A DNA stretch of 52,947 nt, filler included, from Dirinaria sp. TL-2023a (taxonomy: Eukaryota), in NCBI GenBank assembly GCA_051941275.1. It is 3 parts of 3 records of this genome, joined end to end, with 100 filler letters (N's around TTAATTAATTAA, not from the genome) between each part and the next. Parts side by side here need not be neighbours in the genome. Positions count along the whole stretch, not along the records: positions 17,690 to 35,274 come from JAVEBF010000424.1; 2 more parts are not named here. One strand, 5' to 3'. The notes under the pieces are model-generated. The model made no database searches. It was given only the letters and a program-made list of their open reading frames with translations, and was not told where the DNA came from. This document shows, in pieces, positions 6,551 to 35,374 of the stretch. The position numbers were made by a program, and so were the translations under genes. Every line of letters begins with the position of its first letter. The stretch's first letter is position 1.

Positions 6551-9131
6551 AGGAAGAGACAGCCGCAAAAGTTCTCTTAGCGAGTCAGGTTTTGTGATTT
6601 TCGAAAAGTTTAAGGGGGAAAAGGTCACGGTGGACCGGGTTTATATGCATATTCGCAGAAGTAGACTGAAAGCGTAAAACATTTCATGCTAGCTGAGTGG
6701 ACTCCAAGTGTCAGTTGATTATTTGACGTATGAAGCGCTCCGGTAACCGTCATTGCCACGTCTTCAAGCTTCGTATAAGGGGCGCATATGTGACATGTCG
6801 AAAATGTCAGTCATCTCTAGAAAGCCGTTTACCTTGTCTTGCTTCTTCACGCTTCCACGTAGCATGCAAGTTCTGCGGCGTATGCTGATCAAAGTCCCTA
6901 TTATGCATCACCTTTTCGTGGTGGAGAGTTGATAGAGCATAGGTACTATTCAGATGACTCTTAAATCCTGCTGCATGACGAGAACAGCGGCAGACGCTTG
7001 AGACGATCTAAAAACATTCGAGATAAACCTAGTCTAGTTTCTCCGCTGTACTCGCGGAAAATAACATGACTGACGATTGAAATTGAGCTAGCTCTACGTA
7101 TGATGTTCAAATCGAAGGGTGCGACTCTATGCATACCTTAGTAACCAAATTGACTTGCGGGAGAGGTGGGGCATGGATGCTAGAACCGAGCGATCTACCG
7201 TGGATAAGCCAATGTGTTGGAAATCATTGAACGCCATGATGATTTCTGGGGCGTCATTGACCCCCTATATACCTTAACTTTGACCCCTAATAACGGGTCG
7301 CCAATAGGTAGGTACCTTAGTATCTGACCACTTACCTCATTAATACCAAATGGGTAAGGTGCACCGAGCGAGAGAATGATTTCGATGATCTGTTCGAAGC
7401 GAGAAGGTTACATAGATGAGAAAAGGACGCACCTGAGTTGGCCCTTATGATTCGAGCTAGGTCAAGGACCTGATCGAAGTGTCATTGCGGTGAGGTTGCA
7501 CTAATTACCTTAGTCATAAGGTCGTACCCGCTTGCTACACGCCGGCTAGATAGTGTGAAAGACTTGGTAGTGTAGTAGCCTTGCTTGCTATCTGATACTA
7601 TAGCCCTTGCTAGAAAGAATCACAAGGAACTCTCAGGAAAGGTGAATGATCTATATAACTGCGAATCTCAGCGCTGTCTTATTATGATGTCTTATCATGA
7701 CGAGCTCCGCGCCAAATAATCAGAAGGATCAGTCAATACAACAATCTATAAGCGTCGATTTTTCACTGGCTTTTATGGAACAATAATACCATAGATGGCC
7801 ATGCACACGATGTAGTGGGTAATAAAAAAGGTAAATGCTGTGGAATCAAGAGGTATCTAGGATACAAAGAATGATAGGTGTGGGAGCCAGGGACCTAAAT
7901 CAGATTTAGACCCCTCGGACGTGCCTCCGCAAACACCCTAGTCGTAAACCTACATTATTAAATAGGTACAATCATCCTCCACTTTTATAGGCCCTGCTCT
8001 GGGATGGTCAAATCCATAGCCTAACGCTTACTCAGCTTTATTCAGTCTTGACTTCGGCAGTTTACCTATCTCTTCGAAGACGCTATTCTCGTGCATTCGC
8101 TTTAAGACGTCTATATTTTAAGCTTAACTTCTTTCTAGTAGCTAATAACTTGACGACGTTAATTCGTACTGATTAATATACATTAGTATCTCAAGTATTA
8201 CCATCATGTCTTTCTTCTTTTCTAAGCACTGATCTTCGGTGTATACAATCGATATCTCGTATTTCGAAGCTGATCAAAGTCTCTATGAAATCTTAAGAGA
8301 GATACCGAGCTCTGCACAGCAAACATGGCATGAGAGTTAGGGTCCAAACAGACTGGAAATCTAACTATAAGGCAAAAGAAGGAAAGGAGTCTAAGTACCG
8401 AAGGCGCAAGCAATGATAAATAAGGAGATCGAATCGATCATGAGTCCCGCGCGCAATTTCGATCGAATAAAAATAAAATAATCTCGTTAATAGTTAACTT
8501 GATACCTTATACTTAGATATCTCACACGTGTGATGTTATGCGGCGCTGGTTGGAATAGGTGGTAATAGTAAATAGCGATCCCATATGGGATTGGTCTTTT
8601 GATCCAAGTGAGCTTCCAAAAACGATCACGTTTGGCTAGGCCTTACACAGAATCACTTGAAGTCATCTCGGATTCCTCAGAGTCGCGACGTTAAAGCGAC
8701 GTTGACCCGAGGCCCGAGGTGAGGTTGGGGCAGATCTTTGCCTTCTTGGCTCTAAGAGTCCACTCCAGTCCTGGCTACTTTACCTTAGCTCGGGCGTGGT
8801 CAGTGCCCCTAAAGTGGTTGGTTACCTCAACTGAAGGAGCCCCAGGAGACCACCCGAGATTATCACCCGGACGCGCCCACTTGATACCTAGGATGCAGCT
8901 GTGCTCGCCAAAAGGCAACTGTAATCTAGACGACACAAATTTGGTGTTCATACGCCAGCCAGGACTTATGGTGTTAGTCGTCCGTACATTAGCCCTTCTC
9001 GCCCTTCTACCGTAACTCAAACATATATTGATTTCCTCAATACGCTGTAGTAAATTATCAAGGCGTCTACTTCTTCAGTCAAGCCACGCCCCGCAAATGT
9101 CTCCGACAACTAAAGGATCGCAATATCAACC

Positions 9132-16840: not shown

Positions 16841-17589
16841 ATGGCGACCTTCCTGACTCGACCGTCGCAGCCACAGCAAGATCAACCTCCTTCTCCCCCA
16901 GATCCGGCTACGTTCCACATGAGCAACGTTCCGCAAAGACCACCGCCGAGCAATTACCGACCACACAATCGTCCCTCCGCGGATTACAGAGGCAACGGTA
17001 CTCCAGGCTCGGTCAACGGCGACGGCCCCTCACCTATCCCCTCAGCGCCTCCGCCTCACATGCCCAATGGAGGACCCAGACACCGAGCTACAGTCAGTGG
17101 TCCCATCTTTGATGGCCCAAGGAGTCCGCCAAATGCAAAGAGTACGTTCACTCGTTTGCAGAAGACAAAAAGCACTTGCTCACTCATTCATCCCTCAGAC
17201 ACTGCGCACGTCCCCTGCAAATTCTTTAGGTCCGGACAATGTCAAGCCGGCAAAGCTTGCCCTTTCTCTCATTCTACCGACATCTCGACCGTTGATACCC
17301 CGTGCAAGTATTTCTCCAAGGTACGGCATTGTGACATGGAATACGAGAGGTTATGGCATTACAACTTCGCGTGCTAATCGACCTGCCAGGGCAATTGCAA
17401 GTTCGGCGCAAAGTGCGCGCTAGCTCATGTCCTGCCCAATGGACGTAGAGTCAACAGGCCGAGTGGCGCTCATCTCAATCTGGGTGGACGAGTGGATCCA
17501 CAAACATCACGTTACCTTCATCAAGACTCCGCGCTTGCGAACTCTCTGCTAGCTCAGCAAGCGAATGGAAACGCACAACCTTTCGGCTA
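16841..17589 (+). CDS. Tandem CCCH zinc-finger protein (Cps3/Scp3/Lee1-like), 3' truncated by the gap
   Basis: GPRSPPNAK/(intron)TAHVPCKFFRSGQCQAGKACPFSH...PCKYFSK/(intron)GNCKFGAKCALAH gives two C-x7-C-x5-C-x3-H fingers. Confidence 0.85.
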
Positions 17590-17689
17590 NNNNNNNNNNN
17601 NNNNNNNNNNNNNNNNNNNNNNNNNNNNNNNNNTTAATTAATTAANNNNNNNNNNNNNNNNNNNNNNNNNNNNNNNNNNNNNNNNNNNN
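17590..17689. other. Assembly gap with artificial contig linker TTAATTAATTAA (17634-17645)
   Basis: 44 N + TTAATTAATTAA + 44 N. The linker gives stops in all six frames, and genes on both sides are truncated. Confidence 0.97.
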
Positions 17690-17705
17690 GAGGAAACCCA
17701 ATCAC

Positions 17706-19246
17706 CATCTTTGATAAGCCACGCGTTGTGGTTATATAACGGGCATGTACTAAACCGTAGAGATGCCGCGCAGACTTCTCAATCTGCTCCCGCATCTCAT
17801 CGTCGCAGTCGAGATCGAAGACGTCGGTCACAAGATCCAGCGCGTATTGGTAGTATTGCACATCGGTGTTGAGACCGGTCAGGTTGAAGCGGTCGGTGAG
17901 GTAGTCTTCGTCGATCTCGCAGAAGTATTCGTTACCGCGCGAGGATATGAACTGCAGTACGAAGTTGTCAGCCATTGTTCCCCAAGCGTCAAGGAGGAGC
18001 GCAAAAACTAAAAACATTCACGACGATAGTACAATAAGGAGTGAGTCAAGAGATGTAAAGGAGTTGGGACTGGTGGTTTTATTCGATGTAGTCCTTGGGT
18101 GCTGATGGTCAATAGCTGGCCGGATGACGTACGGTCTGTACATCCCCAAATGGAAGTTCTTCCTCTGATGCATAGTAGCTATCCACATCAGAGGCCTCAT
18201 CAGTCACTTCCATTTCATCTGTGTCATACGCGATCGTGGAGTCCTCAGAGCCAAAGTCCTCGTTCTCAATCCAATCAAGATCGTCGGCATCAATCCAGCC
18301 CCCGCGTAAGCGTGGAGCGCCGCCTTTGTTGCTTGCTTCTTCCTCCTGATTGCTTGGAGAGGCTTCAACATCCGAGTCACGCCTATTGCCCAACGCTGGA
18401 GGACGCCAGCCGCCTTTGCCGAAACGAGCTGTAGGCCTGTTGTTCCACATATCGTAGGGGTGGTTTTCCAGAGGCGGTCGCTGGCCAGGGTCCCATCGTT
18501 TGATGTCCTTCTCCCAGCTTTCCCTTGAGTCATTCGATCCATTGTCCGAGGAGTCATCCAATCCGCTGTCCGAGGAGTCATTTTGGATTGAAGCGGAGTC
18601 GTGCACACTGTCCACATTTTGATCTTGAGTATGCTCCGCTTCGGGATCCGAGGATGACGAGTCTTCAGATGCAGAACTACTCGCTGGTGAGGGTGTAGGC
18701 GGAGACGGCTTCCATCCCATTGTAAGCGGTCTTGGAGGTCGCAGCACAGGAAGGGGAGTCGCTTGAGCCGCATCTGAGCTTCTCGGACGAACCGTGGATG
18801 TTGACCTGCCTCTCGGGCTGGACTTTGGACGAGCGCTGGATGTTGGCTTGCTTCTCCGCTTGGACGGCGCTTTCGATGCCACGACTTTCTTCCCAGGTTT
18901 CTTTGCTGCTGTCATAGATCTTGTGGTTCTTTTCTGGCTCTCAGCCATGGCTCTAGTGGTAGGCATTATGATGATGAGGCGTAACTTTGCTGATCATAGA
19001 GTCCGAAGTAAAGTGTAAAGCCTCGGATGGATGTGATAAACAAATGAACATATTCACACTCGATGATAATGAATACCGCAAAATGAATGCCTGATAGTGT
19101 TGTGTTTTTCACGCGACTGTAATGCCGAATGACAAGAAAATGATGTTGCAGGTGTTGAGGGCAAGAGAAATCAAGGCAAGACCTACCCAGTCTCTCCAAT
19201 AGCTGGTGTAATCACTGTCGGTTTCACTGTTGAATTCCTCCATCAT
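17706..19246 (-). CDS. CKB2: Casein kinase II regulatory beta subunit (CKB2-type), 5' part; exon 1 19187-19246, intron 17952-19186 (1235 nt), exon 2 17706-17951
   Basis: Exon 1 is MMEEFNSETDSDYTSYWRDW, followed by a GTAGGT donor. Exon 2 follows a CTGAC branch point and CAG acceptor and reads FISSRGNEYFCEIDEDYLTDRFNLTGL...ARHLYGLVHARYITTTRGLSKM. The rest is lost in the gap. Confidence 0.92.
18109..18966 (-). CDS. 285-aa low-complexity ORF (basic N-half, acidic/Ser-rich C-half) nested in CK2-beta intron 1; nested gene or alternative first exon
   Basis: ATG-initiated 858-nt ORF on the same strand as CKB2. A phase-0 donor ACC|GTACGT at 18133/18132 matches the phase-0 CKB2 acceptor at 17952. Confidence 0.6.
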   Translation of the reverse strand: MPTTRAMAESQKRTTRSMTAAKKPGKKVVASKAPSKRRSKPTSSARPKSSPRGRSTSTVRPRSSDAAQATPLPVLRPPRPLTMGWKPSPPTPSPASSSASEDSSSSDPEAEHTQDQNVDSVHDSASIQNDSSDSGLDDSSDNGSNDSRESWEKDIKRWDPGQRPPLENHPYDMWNNRPTARFGKGGWRPPALGNRRDSDVEASPSNQEEEASNKGGAPRLRGGWIDADDLDWIENEDFGSEDSTIAYDTDEMEVTDEASDVDSYYASEEELPFGDVQTVRHPASY

Positions 19247-20042: not shown

Positions 20043-20464
20043 ATGCATCTTTCCGCCATTACCCGCTTGTTGCCTCCTTGCCTACTCGCGCTTCTCTTGT
20101 CGAGTACGGCTTACGCGCGTCCAACCGACGCCGCACACCAGAGACGGATCGATGACTTTTTTGCCCAAAAGCCTATGCACACTACCGCTCTACTGGCTGG
20201 TGCCGCCGCCACCGAAGTCGCCAGACCAGCGATGCCGACAATAGCTCTGCGAAGTAGAGTTCTCAATCAGCGCTCGTCCGAGCATGACGACCGGCCTGTT
20301 GTCGTTTCAAGGCCCGATGGGTCCCAGGAGGTTTTGATGGATCCAGATAGGGTCAAGAAGCTGGTCGAGGAGTATGTTCATCCCCTTCACGTGCTACTGT
20401 GACACGGGTGCTTAGATCTCGCAGACACGTCAGAGATATCGAAGCGCGGGAATTGAAGATTTAG
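20043..20464 (+). CDS. Small predicted secreted protein (about 125 aa), intron about 20373-20415
   Basis: Signal-peptide-like MHLSAITRLLPPCLLALLLSSTAYA-RP. Splicing GTATGT...CTGAC...TAG gives the end KKLVEESRRHVRDIEARELKI*. Confidence 0.55.
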
Positions 20465-20770: not shown

Positions 20771-22864
20771 CTATGCAACCCCATTCTCGCCCTGTGCCTG
20801 CTTCCATTGATGGGCCATAGCCAGCAGCTTCGACATGTTGGCAGCTGATTGATCGTCTGCAGGAAAGACGTAATCCATATACTCCTCGAAGCTGTCGTCA
20901 TCCAGCTTCCTCCGCTTCTTCACTCGTCGTGGCATCTGTTTGTCGACCTTCTCAATATCTGTAGCCGAGCCGTGGGTGCTTTCGAACGACTTCCAGGCAT
21001 TGAGAAGTGCGACGCGCTGGAAGGTTGTTAGTCTACTTCAACGATGCTAGATCAGATAGGATCAAATGCTTACCTCTTCCTTCAGGTCTTTCTCTTTCAT
21101 GCTCTTGTAAGCGCGCTCAAAGATCGCCCGAGCACGCTTCTTCGCTTCCTCGCTCACTGGCTTCTCTTCATCTTCATCCTCTTCCTCCTCTTCTTCACCT
21201 TCGTCCGGAACGTTGATCTCGAAATGCGCGAAGCTTATCCATACCTTTACGTGATCCGTCTTGTCAAGCAAGCGCTCGTAAAGTGCTCTTGTGCGGTCAT
21301 ACTCGCCTTCCTCCTCTTCAAAGTCGATGTACGCTTTCCACAACAGTTCGGGCATATCTAGCGATGACTGGTTTACTGCAAGCTCAAATATTGCTCTTGT
21401 CCGTTCAAGGTCATCCAGTGCCCTCTCCAACTCCGCGAATTTGATCCAAGCTTGACAGTTGGCCGGGTTCCACTCGATATGCTTTTCATACAGCGTGCGA
21501 CATCTTACGAATTCGTGCAACTTCTCCTCGAGCTGTATGTAACCTTTGAACAATTTGTCCTTCGGACACATGCCGATAGCTTGGCCCATCGTCTTTCTCG
21601 CAGCTTGCAATTGCATCTGCCGGACTTCGAATTGTGCCTTCATGATCCAGATCTTGGCGAATGTGAATTTCTTGTGGGGCACGAGCTTCAGACATTCTTG
21701 ATAAATCTGTCGCGCGCGATCGGTATCTCTGTTGTCCATCTCCTCCCAAAGGGCGTAGAATATCCAGAGATAGATATAACGCCGCCAATGGCGCTTTTCC
21801 TGCGTAGGTGGAATTTGGGCGATTGCTCGTTCGTAAATCTCTCGTACTCGCTCCGGATCTCCGGACGCTTCTTCAAGCCTGGCAAAGTCGAACCACACGT
21901 CGTAATTCTTGGGATTCTCCTTGATCTGCTCTTCGTACTGAACTCGGCGCTTCGATAGTATGACATCTTCTACACCTTCACGATCACCAAATTGTTTCTC
22001 AAAGGTTGTGTAAGCTTTGTGCAGGGTCATAGCCTTAGACCTAGGTAGGCGGTCCAGGGCGTATTTGTAGATAGCTCTAGCGCGCTCATATTCCTTGAGC
22101 TTCGCTTCGTAGCGTGCATAGGCAACGAAAAGCTTTTCATCCATAAAATCGTCTCCCAGAGTCTCAATCGCCATGCCAAAGACTTCCCTAACCAGGTCAC
22201 TCGTACCGTTTTCTTCTTCGAACCTGGCCCACTTGATCCAATTCCGTGGCTCAGGATGAACGAAAACAAATCTCTCGAAGATCGCCCTCGCTCTTGAAAA
22301 CTCGTTGTATCGCTTTTCGAGCTTAATGTAGGCACTCCATGCCGCTTCGTCTGGCTCCCATGACATCCACCTTTCGAATACCTGTCTCGTGCCAGCAATG
22401 TTACCAAGCGTCTCTTCCATGTAGACATATTTATACCATAGCTTATCTATGCGCGGTAAAATTGTCACGGCTCGGTCCAATAAATTCCTGGCGTGGTTTA
22501 TATTCCTGGTCTTCATCTCCGCTTCGACATAGCGAATCCACAAGACGACCGCCGTGGAATCCACATCCAAAGCTCTCTCAAAGATGGACCTGGCTCTTCG
22601 AAACTCCTTTTGTTCCAGTTCCCACTGAGCATACCGCATCCAATTATTCATGTTTATCCGATTCCTTCGCACATAGTCTTCGAACTCCTTTCTCTTTCTC
22701 CCTTGGAATTCATGGAGCTCTTCGAGATCTGCGAACCTTTGAGTTGGCGCTTGCAATCCGGGTTCCTGTCTGTCGACAGCTTCACGCAGTAGTTGCTCCG
22801 CGCTGATCTGGGTTGGTGCTGGGGCTTTATTCTTGACCCTTGGGGGTCCCCTAGAGGCCTCCAT
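20771..22864 (-). CDS. CLF1: Pre-mRNA splicing factor Clf1/Syf3 (crooked neck, HAT repeats); intron about 21017-21073
   Basis: [29 protein letters not shown] followed by HAT repeats. The last exon reads [12 protein letters not shown]...[12 protein letters not shown]...[17 protein letters not shown]. Confidence 0.97.
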
Positions 22865-24085
22865 CGTTGGAAAAGCTGAGGGTCTATGTACGCAAAATCT
22901 GCGTTAGGCTAATAGATCAAGCTGTTGTATTGAAAGCCTCCAGGTAATATCGAGGGATAGGTAGGTCGTCAGTGTGGTCTGTTAGCAAGCTAGAATGAAT
23001 TCAAAATATAGTGAGGTACCATCGCAGACCTGAGGGGAGGTGTCCCAACAACAAGGGCTACTTTAGGGTTAGAAAGTTTCTTTCAACCTCCGAACTCAAG
23101 ATGTGGTCAACCATCTAATTTCTTCAATCCTGCGTCACGCAAACACGAAAGTGCCCAAAAAAAAAAGGTAGTAACAGACTAAGCCCTACCTTAGCTCCTC
23201 CTCCTTCTATAATAACCCATCCCAAATTCATTCTAATCAACCCGAATTCTAATCAAAGTAACCAAGAACCAATATTCAACCCAACGCAAAACCCAAGCAT
23301 GATTTAATCCCCAACGCAATTCAAATCGAATTATTACCAGTGTCTCTGAATTCTACTTCTTCCCGTCACGCTGGCTCTCTCTCTTTCTACTCTTTCACCT
23401 CTTTCCCATCTCCCCCTCTCATCCCAAAGCCTAAACATCTAATCAAGCACTCAGCCAAAGATTACAAAGAAATCTGATAGTAGGAGAAAAGAAACCCTTC
23501 AACCTTATCGAAAGGAGATGTTTCATTCTGAAATTTATCTGGGAATTGATTATGCAGCTTAACAATTCTAGCTTCCTTTTTCCTTGCTTGGGTTATAATT
23601 TTCAGAGATAATTTGCTTTGTTGAATACTATTTTGAAAGTCTATGCGAGAGATTTATACGAGTATGCAGACGCCGCGCTGGCTTTCTCTCTTATTTCATC
23701 TTTCAGGTGACCTATATTGTTGCTAATTTTTTTTGGGGTTGTGGAGGTGGTACTCACGTCTGAGAATGGATTTATGTTATCTTTTGCCCGATGGACGAAG
23801 ATTGAAGATTCTACAAAGAAGGCTAAGGACAGGGTTAGGGGCGAGATAAAACAAGGAGAGAAGAAAGCTTGCAGTGACAAATACCTGATAATAGATCTAA
23901 AAAGCTAGTACTGTTGGTCATTACTACTGATGGAATAAAAGAATAACCATCGATTCATCCACTCAAACAGTCAATCTGTAACCAAACTACCCAATCGCCA
24001 ACATCACCCATCGCAGGAAACCCCCACACTGTCCCTCTCCTTACCACACAAACCCCCTCCGTTCCCCTCCGCTGCAAAGCCTCGC

Positions 24086-35274: not shown

Positions 35275-35374
35275 NNNNNNNNNNNNNNNNNNNNNNNNNN
35301 NNNNNNNNNNNNNNNNNNTTAATTAATTAANNNNNNNNNNNNNNNNNNNNNNNNNNNNNNNNNNNNNNNNNNNN
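35275..35374. other. Assembly gap with artificial contig linker TTAATTAATTAA (35319-35330)
   Basis: Same 100-bp N/linker structure as at 17590. Confidence 0.97.

Follow-up and report, generated by a model that had tools for sequence, protein, structure and literature searches.

A conserved coding exon in the first intron of a CK2-beta gene from the lichen-forming fungus Dirinaria and its possible use as an alternative first exon

The kinase CK2 is pleiotropic, and its beta subunit has a regulatory N-terminus with autophosphorylation sites. In plants, CK2-beta carries a lineage-specific N-terminal extension, which is part of a single constitutive protein and is added to the normal N-terminus. 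In the full-text literature, judged from the search results alone, no intron-borne exon or nested gene in CK2-beta turned up. In the present study, we analyzed a stretch of 52,947 bases (the window) from Dirinaria sp. TL-2023a, a lichen-forming ascomycete, which contains the first two coding exons of a CKB2-type CK2-beta gene. The first intron of this gene holds a same-strand open reading frame (ORF) of 285 codons. The results indicated that this ORF is a genuine coding exon, restricted to one lineage and belonging to a small orphan family, and we propose that it may serve as an alternative first exon of CK2-beta.

An open reading frame within the canonical first intron

The window consists of three contigs (~17.6 kilobases each) joined by N44-TTAATTAATTAA-N44 linkers at 17590-17689 and 35275-35374, and features are not readable across the joins. 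The CK2-beta locus lies on the minus strand, at the left edge of the second contig (17690-35274; 17,585 nucleotides, nt). The coding part of exon 1 (19187..19246), recognized by its translation MMEEFNSETDSDYTSYWRDW, is followed by a GTAGGT donor from 19186. Exon 2 (17706..17951; FISSRGNEYFCEIDEDY...SKM) begins at a phase-0 acceptor, and RNA contigs cover its whole length. The exon-2 peptide matched the Pfam family CK_II_beta (PF01214) with 90 bits and an expectation value (E) of 2.2e-25, well above the cut-off of 27 bits, and was 89-99% identical to the best 120 CK2-beta entries listed, including named ascomycete (Pezizomycotina) proteins of ~250 amino acids (aa). At the exon-2 end at 17706, the RNA contigs leave the window, and their onward translation matches LEKYKRLDFG of the protein P0022, which belongs to the next exon. 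The first 16 nt of intron 2 (GTGATT..., 17690..17705) complete the locus; the contig end cuts the gene at 17690, and the remainder of CK2-beta is outside the window.

P0022, a protein from a 1057-nt Logan contig, is a full, intron-free CK2-beta of 248 aa, whose first 20 residues are identical to exon 1 of the window and which aligned with human CK2-beta structures at E 4e-70. A CPRVAC...CGKC motif was found in P0022, which comes from a 95-99% identical relative, and in the orthologous metagenome locus L002; the window's gene is cut before that part. A four-Cys zinc-binding motif and a C-terminal CK2-alpha-binding part are features of CK_II_beta. The canonical N-terminus is acidic and 20 residues long. 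Its SYWRDW segment aligned with human CK2-beta S8-W12, and its two Trp residues with human W9 and W12, a piece that presumably forms the first short helix of the CK2-beta fold.

Canonical intron 1 (17952..19186, minus strand, GTAGGT...CTGCAG) is 1235 nt long. Its removal was seen in three public RNA runs from a single sample and study, each of 23 million letters, labelled lichen metagenome and represented by contigs only. In all three runs, contigs 95-99% like the window joined 17951 to 19187 across a GT..AG intron on the minus strand (CT..AC on the plus strand). One of the junction-bearing contigs was 1057 nt long, and the exon-1 5' untranslated region (UTR) was at least 145 nt, as an RNA contig spanned 19187-19391. 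In L002, intron 1 of CK2-beta measured 1107 nt, and introns 2 and 3 measured 93 and 124 nt; the first intron there is about ten times longer than its neighbors. On the same strand as CK2-beta, the ORF runs from an ATG at 18966 to 18109. When the intron was shuffled 5000 times, the longest same-strand ORF had 225 codons, and none of the shuffles reached 285. These results bore out a preliminary description of this DNA, in which a CKB2 first intron of ~1.2 kilobases with a same-strand ORF at 18966-18109 had been reported.

Coding constraint, fixed position and conserved donor

JGI metagenome contigs were scanned for the ORF, which yielded seven loci. One of them, L007, was a chance match: its translated frames suggest a bacterial contig (alanine-racemase-like, DnaB-like), no CK2-beta was found in it at E up to 10, and it was left out of all counts. 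In the six remaining loci (L001-L006), the CK2-beta exon-1 peptide was found ~200 nt upstream of the ORF in every case. Of these loci, L001, L002, L003 and L005 are long enough to include exon 2, which followed ~165 nt downstream of the ORF in each; L004 and L006 end earlier. Two database proteins revealed the same arrangement because the ORF caller had read across exon boundaries. P0017 begins with MMEEFNSETDSDYTSYWRDW, followed by VG from the GTAGGT donor and then by the ORF; in P0016, the ORF extends into exon 2 as read in the +1 frame, and 11 of the 15 residues are identical. Altogether, the ORF lay between CKB2 exons 1 and 2 in 9/9 cases with visible flanks. The neighbors upstream were also syntenic with the window, with 93% identity for a HAT-repeat splicing-factor gene and 51% for a small ORF.

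The ORF product belongs to a small family. A word-indexed search returned 10 relatives of 179-285 aa with 33-58% identity (leaving aside the window's own entry at 99%), and when 1.84 billion representatives were searched exhaustively with a profile, 12 proteins were returned in total, 10 of them below E 1e-30 and the longest of 355 aa. Apart from the window's own, the family entries come from ENA, JGI or Logan assemblies and are labelled at most 'hypothetical protein'; the family has so far been seen only in sequences from lichen material and metagenomes. Its members share the core SWEKDIxRWxPGQRPPLxHHPYDMWxNRPTARxGKxG, present as SWEKDIKRWDPGQRPPLENHPYDMWNNRPTARFGKGG in the window, and this motif core was kept down to 23% overall identity. 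An RLRGG motif was invariant in alignment A1 (13 sequences) and nearly invariant in A4 (16 sequences). Outside the core, the family sequence varies, and its insertions and deletions (indels) are in frame.

Selection on the ORF was assessed by the ratio of non-synonymous to synonymous divergence (dN/dS). Between L002 and L006, dN/dS was 0.27, with 47.3 synonymous changes at 171 sites and 47.7 non-synonymous changes at 552 sites (Fisher p = 3e-9). A similar value of 0.33 was obtained between L005 and L006 (Fisher test of synonymous against non-synonymous changes, p = 7e-7). Between the window and L002 and L006, the synonymous sites were saturated (proportion of synonymous differences, pS, 0.76-0.84), and dN was 0.58. 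We regard the ORF as real coding sequence because it has homologues with in-frame indels, because dN/dS is 0.27-0.33 and because none of the 5000 shuffles gave such an ORF. Conservation of the ORF with dN/dS below 1 had been put forward in the preliminary description as a check; the values between diverged relatives agreed with it, and the relatives found retain both the ORF and its donor.

The start of the ORF was also conserved. In the non-coding stretch from the exon-1 donor to the ORF start (18967..19186, minus strand), the identity between the window and L002 was 50%, and conservation starts at the ATG (CA[TC]AATGCC). The ATG and the following MPTTRAMAESQKR were conserved in the window, L002, L003, L005, L006, P0004, P0008 and P0014, so the ORF has its own conserved start, in agreement with the start region proposed earlier. 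In P0017, the first Met is replaced by Ile and the second Met is kept.

At the other end, a GTACGT hexamer (18127..18132, minus strand) starts at 18132, right after codon 278, whose last base is 18133, and lies 181 nt upstream of the exon-2 acceptor. This hexamer stands at a codon boundary, in phase 0, in the window and in L001-L006 (7/7 DNA copies). When 24 family sequences (19 database proteins and five translations, several of them near-duplicates) were aligned, the donor column read Val-Arg in 19 sequences and Val-Cys in five. The radical Arg/Cys change would fit a C-to-T change at donor position +4 (GTACGT to GTATGT), with GTATGT deduced from the protein alone; both hexamers presumably fit the fungal donor consensus. 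The sequences aligned up to the donor column, and thereafter their tails were 1-68 residues long and unrelated. In the window, the read-through tail is VRHPASY, in which Val-Arg is encoded by the donor hexamer, and the rest of the ORF (18109..18126; HPASY and the stop) would be read as intron sequence, not as conserved coding sequence. An ORF end that is a splice donor, and not a C-terminus, would fit these observations.

The stretch from the donor to exon 2 is the proposed alternative intron (17952..18132, minus strand), which would be 181 nt long and which carries CTGAC 18 nt before CAG. It was poorly conserved, with large indels relative to L002. The first 12 nt from the donor were identical at 10 positions between the window and L002, and the whole stretch was 49% identical with 61 gap columns. 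With lengths of 181 nt (window) and ~164 nt (L002, from the donor at 6613 to the acceptor at 6776+6) and 49% identity, it could hardly accommodate both a private intron and a conserved terminal exon, and nothing of the kind was visible between the donor and exon 2 in the window or L002. Exon 1 ends and exon 2 starts at a codon boundary. As the internal donor and the exon-2 acceptor are both in phase 0, a joint from 18133 to 17951 is in frame, both in the window and in the four loci with exon 2. The GTACGT donor in the phase of the exon-2 acceptor, first reported in the preliminary description, was confirmed, and its position and phase were kept in all relatives.

The exon defined by this start and donor comprises codons 1-278 (18133..18966, minus strand) and encodes a basic N-terminus, the family core, RLRGG and an acidic C-terminal part. 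Its K/R-rich start reads AAKKPGKKVVASKAPSKRRSK, with a net charge of +12 over residues 1-40, and the charge was +7 over residues 41-80 and -13 over residues 241-280; Ser/Asp-rich tracts are also present. The Lys/Arg-rich start reported previously was therefore found, but the claim that the ORF is full of CK2 consensus sites did not hold. The nine [ST]xx[DE] sites were not above expectation from composition (shuffle mean 10.4; 773 of 1000 shuffles reached nine), and among 11 family members tested, only one had a site count that was reached by no more than 13 of 1000 shuffles. To call the ORF full of CK2 sites says no more than that it is rich in Ser, Asp and Glu. The product matched no Pfam family at E up to 1 and had no usable match in the ESM Atlas. 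AlphaFold2, run with a 16-sequence alignment, gave a mean predicted local distance difference test (pLDDT) score of 50.4 and a predicted template modelling score of 0.17, with short helices at 147-156, 170-175 and 227-232, and the product is accordingly predicted to be disordered. A complex prediction for ORF residues 140-285 with CK2-beta P0022 scored 0.00 in a run without controls, which counts neither way.

Two details of the product are recorded here in their own right. RLRGG (18298-18312, ORF residues 219-223 of 278) sits in the region predicted to be disordered and has the same sequence as the C-terminal tail of ubiquitin. A ubiquitin-like protein was rejected, given no Pfam match at E up to 1, no ubiquitin fold and the internal position of RLRGG; the resemblance is one of five residues. 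In addition, a Ser/Asp-rich insertion with an internal repeat, NDSSDSGLDDSSDNGSNDS (18513-18590, ORF residues ~126-151), was specific to the window and was not found in L002, L003, L005 and L006 (alignment gaps of 18 and 9 nt). The insertion reads as an example of in-frame, low-complexity exon growth.

A proposed long CK2-beta isoform and its rivals

The best-supported mechanism, to which we would give roughly even chances, is that the ORF serves as an alternative first exon, from which a long CK2-beta isoform arises. Transcription would start inside intron 1, upstream of 18966, and the stretch 18967..19186 would contain an internal promoter and 5' UTR. Splicing would then connect 18133 with the usual acceptor of exon 2 at 17951. 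The resulting protein would have ~506 aa, provided that its remainder is like P0022, with 278 new residues ahead of the CK2-beta body that starts at FISSRGNEYF. In this protein, a 278-residue intrinsically disordered region, basic at its head, acidic at its tail and with conserved short motifs, would replace the 20-residue canonical N-terminus, and the canonical short isoform would result from skipping of the whole 1235-nt intron. The alternative-first-exon reading is favored over a separate nested gene because the start and the donor are conserved and the sequence after the donor is not. The preliminary description had named a nested gene or an in-frame alternative first exon; the conserved coding exon with its donor favors the latter, which found no support from RNA or from fused protein models. 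The roles suggested there for a long isoform, namely nuclear or chromatin targeting and autoinhibition, are guesses.

The upstream stretch was also considered in this respect. Between L002 and L006, it differed at 27 of 202 positions, which is below the synonymous pS of the ORF (0.28). The stretch itself could be constrained, or the Nei-Gojobori dS could be somewhat inflated; the low divergence would be compatible with an internal transcription start and is no proof of it. At the protein level, an aromatic residue was conserved 5-7 positions before the joint (LPFGDVQT, FYFGDVQT, LPYTPT, LPFALI), and as a speculation, it may stand in for the lost SYWRDW piece.

Several observations weigh against a long isoform. 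The RNA contigs contained the canonical joint alone, with no intron-started transcript and no 18133-to-17951 junction. The ORF region 17995-19153 had no RNA cover in these three small runs from one sample, so absence is not demonstrable from them. Of the two junctions that the preliminary description had set side by side, the one from 19187 to 17951 was seen in 3/3 runs, and the one from 18133 to 17951 was unseen in the thin contigs, which leave the ORF uncovered. No protein fused the ORF family to CK_II_beta in a near-length search (10 matches), in the profile search (12) or in a local profile scan of 140 proteins, and longer fused forms of the ORF numbered 0 among 6336 candidates, which is weak evidence. 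The annotated relatives carry the canonical form only, such as the proteins of Heterodermia speciosa (250 aa) and Physcia stellaris (248 aa), and the NCBI annotation calls the ORF a separate gene. At the nucleotide level, L002 and L006 were 87% identical both in the ORF and in the upstream non-coding stretch, and constraint on the ORF is visible only as dN below dS and as the motif core. Finally, human W9 and W12 would have no aligned counterparts in the long isoform.

Long CK2-beta models do occur in other lichen fungi. Those of Sticta (P0131, 413 aa), Circinaria (P0058, 396 aa) and Umbilicaria (P0110, 652 aa) and a Logan ORF call (P0127, 401 aa) were rejected as relatives of the ORF, since none of them matched the ORF profile (E of at least 3 in the local scan of 140 proteins). 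The N-terminal extensions of P0131, P0058 and P0110 (150-425 aa) were unrelated to one another and were joined directly to exon 2 at its first residues, F[IT]SSRGNEYF; that of Umbilicaria P0110 appears to be read-through of the 3' end of the intron. Either gene predictors routinely miss the 60-nt exon 1, or CK2-beta genes of Lecanoromycetes often have a long first intron with an open frame.

An independent nested gene, with its own intronic promoter and a free disordered protein of ~280 aa that is possibly a CK2 substrate or regulator, is in our view rather unlikely. Its end would lie either at the first stop after an unspliced GTACGT or in a terminal exon behind a short intron of its own, as in the NCBI model KAL8826821.1 (Q9191_003558, hypothetical protein, 223 aa). 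That a separate protein of this kind is annotated here counts for it, as do the ORF's own conserved start, a canonical CK2-beta mRNA without the ORF and the lack of a fused model in the collections searched. However, no C-terminus was conserved to a stop: the tails were unrelated in 24/24 sequences while GTACGT (or the deduced GTATGT) was kept, and neither a stop with conserved coding sequence leading up to it nor a 3' end of its own was found. KAL8826821.1 is 99% identical to part of the ORF, starts at the internal Met83, leaves the ORF at the same GTACGT and, after a 31-nt intron (18132-18102), continues with HPRTTSNKTTSPNSFTSLDSLLIVLSS. Thirty-one nt is shorter than usual fungal introns. 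The model is unlikely because the N-terminus that it drops is conserved in relatives and the tail that it adds is not (HPRTTSNK... has no counterpart in L002), and this public model is probably wrong. Moreover, same-strand polyadenylation within 181 nt of exon 2 would be expected to cut the host pre-mRNA as well.

The same exon could instead be included from the normal CK2-beta promoter, as a cassette between an acceptor upstream of the ORF and exon 2. In that case, the frame of exon 1 would serve as a short upstream ORF, with leaky scanning or re-initiation yielding the long isoform. The window does offer an acceptor-like GATCAG 23 nt before the ATG, from which the exon-1 frame would stop at a TAA overlapping the ATG (TAATG). 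But GATCAG was not present in L002, L003, L005 and L006, and joining exon 1 to the nearest upstream AG leaves it out of frame with the ORF in L002 as in the window, on our reading of the sequence; together with the onset of conservation at the ATG, this would make a separate transcription start in 19186-18967 the simplest route. The RNA contigs included none of this form, at a cover too thin to count, and we consider such a cassette improbable. Least credible of all is a functionless ORF, that is, a chance or decaying open frame similar between genomes only through their kinship. The equal identity of the ORF and the flanking intron between close relatives, the predicted disorder (mean pLDDT 50) and the lack of a known domain would be expected under such an account. 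Against it stand the shuffles, none of which gave such an ORF; a frame that stays open with in-frame indels only, despite saturated synonymous sites; dN/dS with p below 1e-6; and an invariant motif core that outlasts the divergence of the remaining sequence.

Neighboring genes, meaning and comparison with known systems

The genes around the locus were also inspected. On the minus strand, 21065-22903 encodes a HAT/TPR-repeat pre-mRNA splicing factor of the Syf1/CLF1/PRP39 kind, and this is the neighbor that is 93% identical and syntenic in L002 and L005. The Physcia stellaris protein P0046 is a 248-aa CK2-beta by sequence, yet it is named 'pre-mRNA-splicing factor CLF1'; the name was probably carried over from the neighboring splicing-factor gene. 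Divergent from CK2-beta, an ORF of 119 aa on the plus strand (20043-20402) has a hydrophobic, signal-peptide-like start, no Pfam match and 51% identity in L002, and is probably a small conserved gene. On the neighboring contig, a plus-strand ORF at 16841-17377 encodes a CCCH zinc finger (PF00642, E 2.7e-5) and has an N-terminus rich in Pro; it seems to be the opening exon of a larger gene and has no connection with the CK2-beta finding.

If the long isoform is expressed, CK2 would be regulated in a new way, through a conserved, optional replacement of the N-terminus by 278 residues. The locus would also offer a clear case of a disordered exon, young and quickly evolving, that became fixed in an intron. 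Metagenome ORF callers report this exon as a free protein with spurious tails. A bolder scenario, which we hold to be quite unlikely, is that a new disordered exon was born in the CKB2 intron of lichen-forming fungi and gives the long isoform from an internal promoter, with the basic head and acidic Ser-rich tail acting as a targeting or pseudosubstrate module and RLRGG as a processing or recognition site. If true, exon birth in an intron would have rewired a master kinase in a symbiotic lineage.

The locus can be compared with four known systems. With the alternative first exons and intronic promoters of eukaryotes in general, it shares a coding 5' exon in intron 1 that has its own ATG and a phase-matched donor; it differs in that use of the exon is a prediction from sequence, in the size of the exon (278 codons against 20) and in an orphan family tied to one position. 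Same-strand nested genes likewise have a conserved ORF with its own start wholly inside a host intron, whereas the present ORF family has no conserved C-terminus or stop and ends at a conserved donor. The plant CK2-beta extension resembles the proposed one in idea, as a lineage-specific, non-conserved N-terminal addition; here the addition would be optional and would replace the N-terminus. Among the CKB2-type CK2-beta genes of Pezizomycotina, the host gene is a typical member with a canonical product of ~250 aa, and the proposed isoform, with about double that length, would be missing the conserved SYWRDW.

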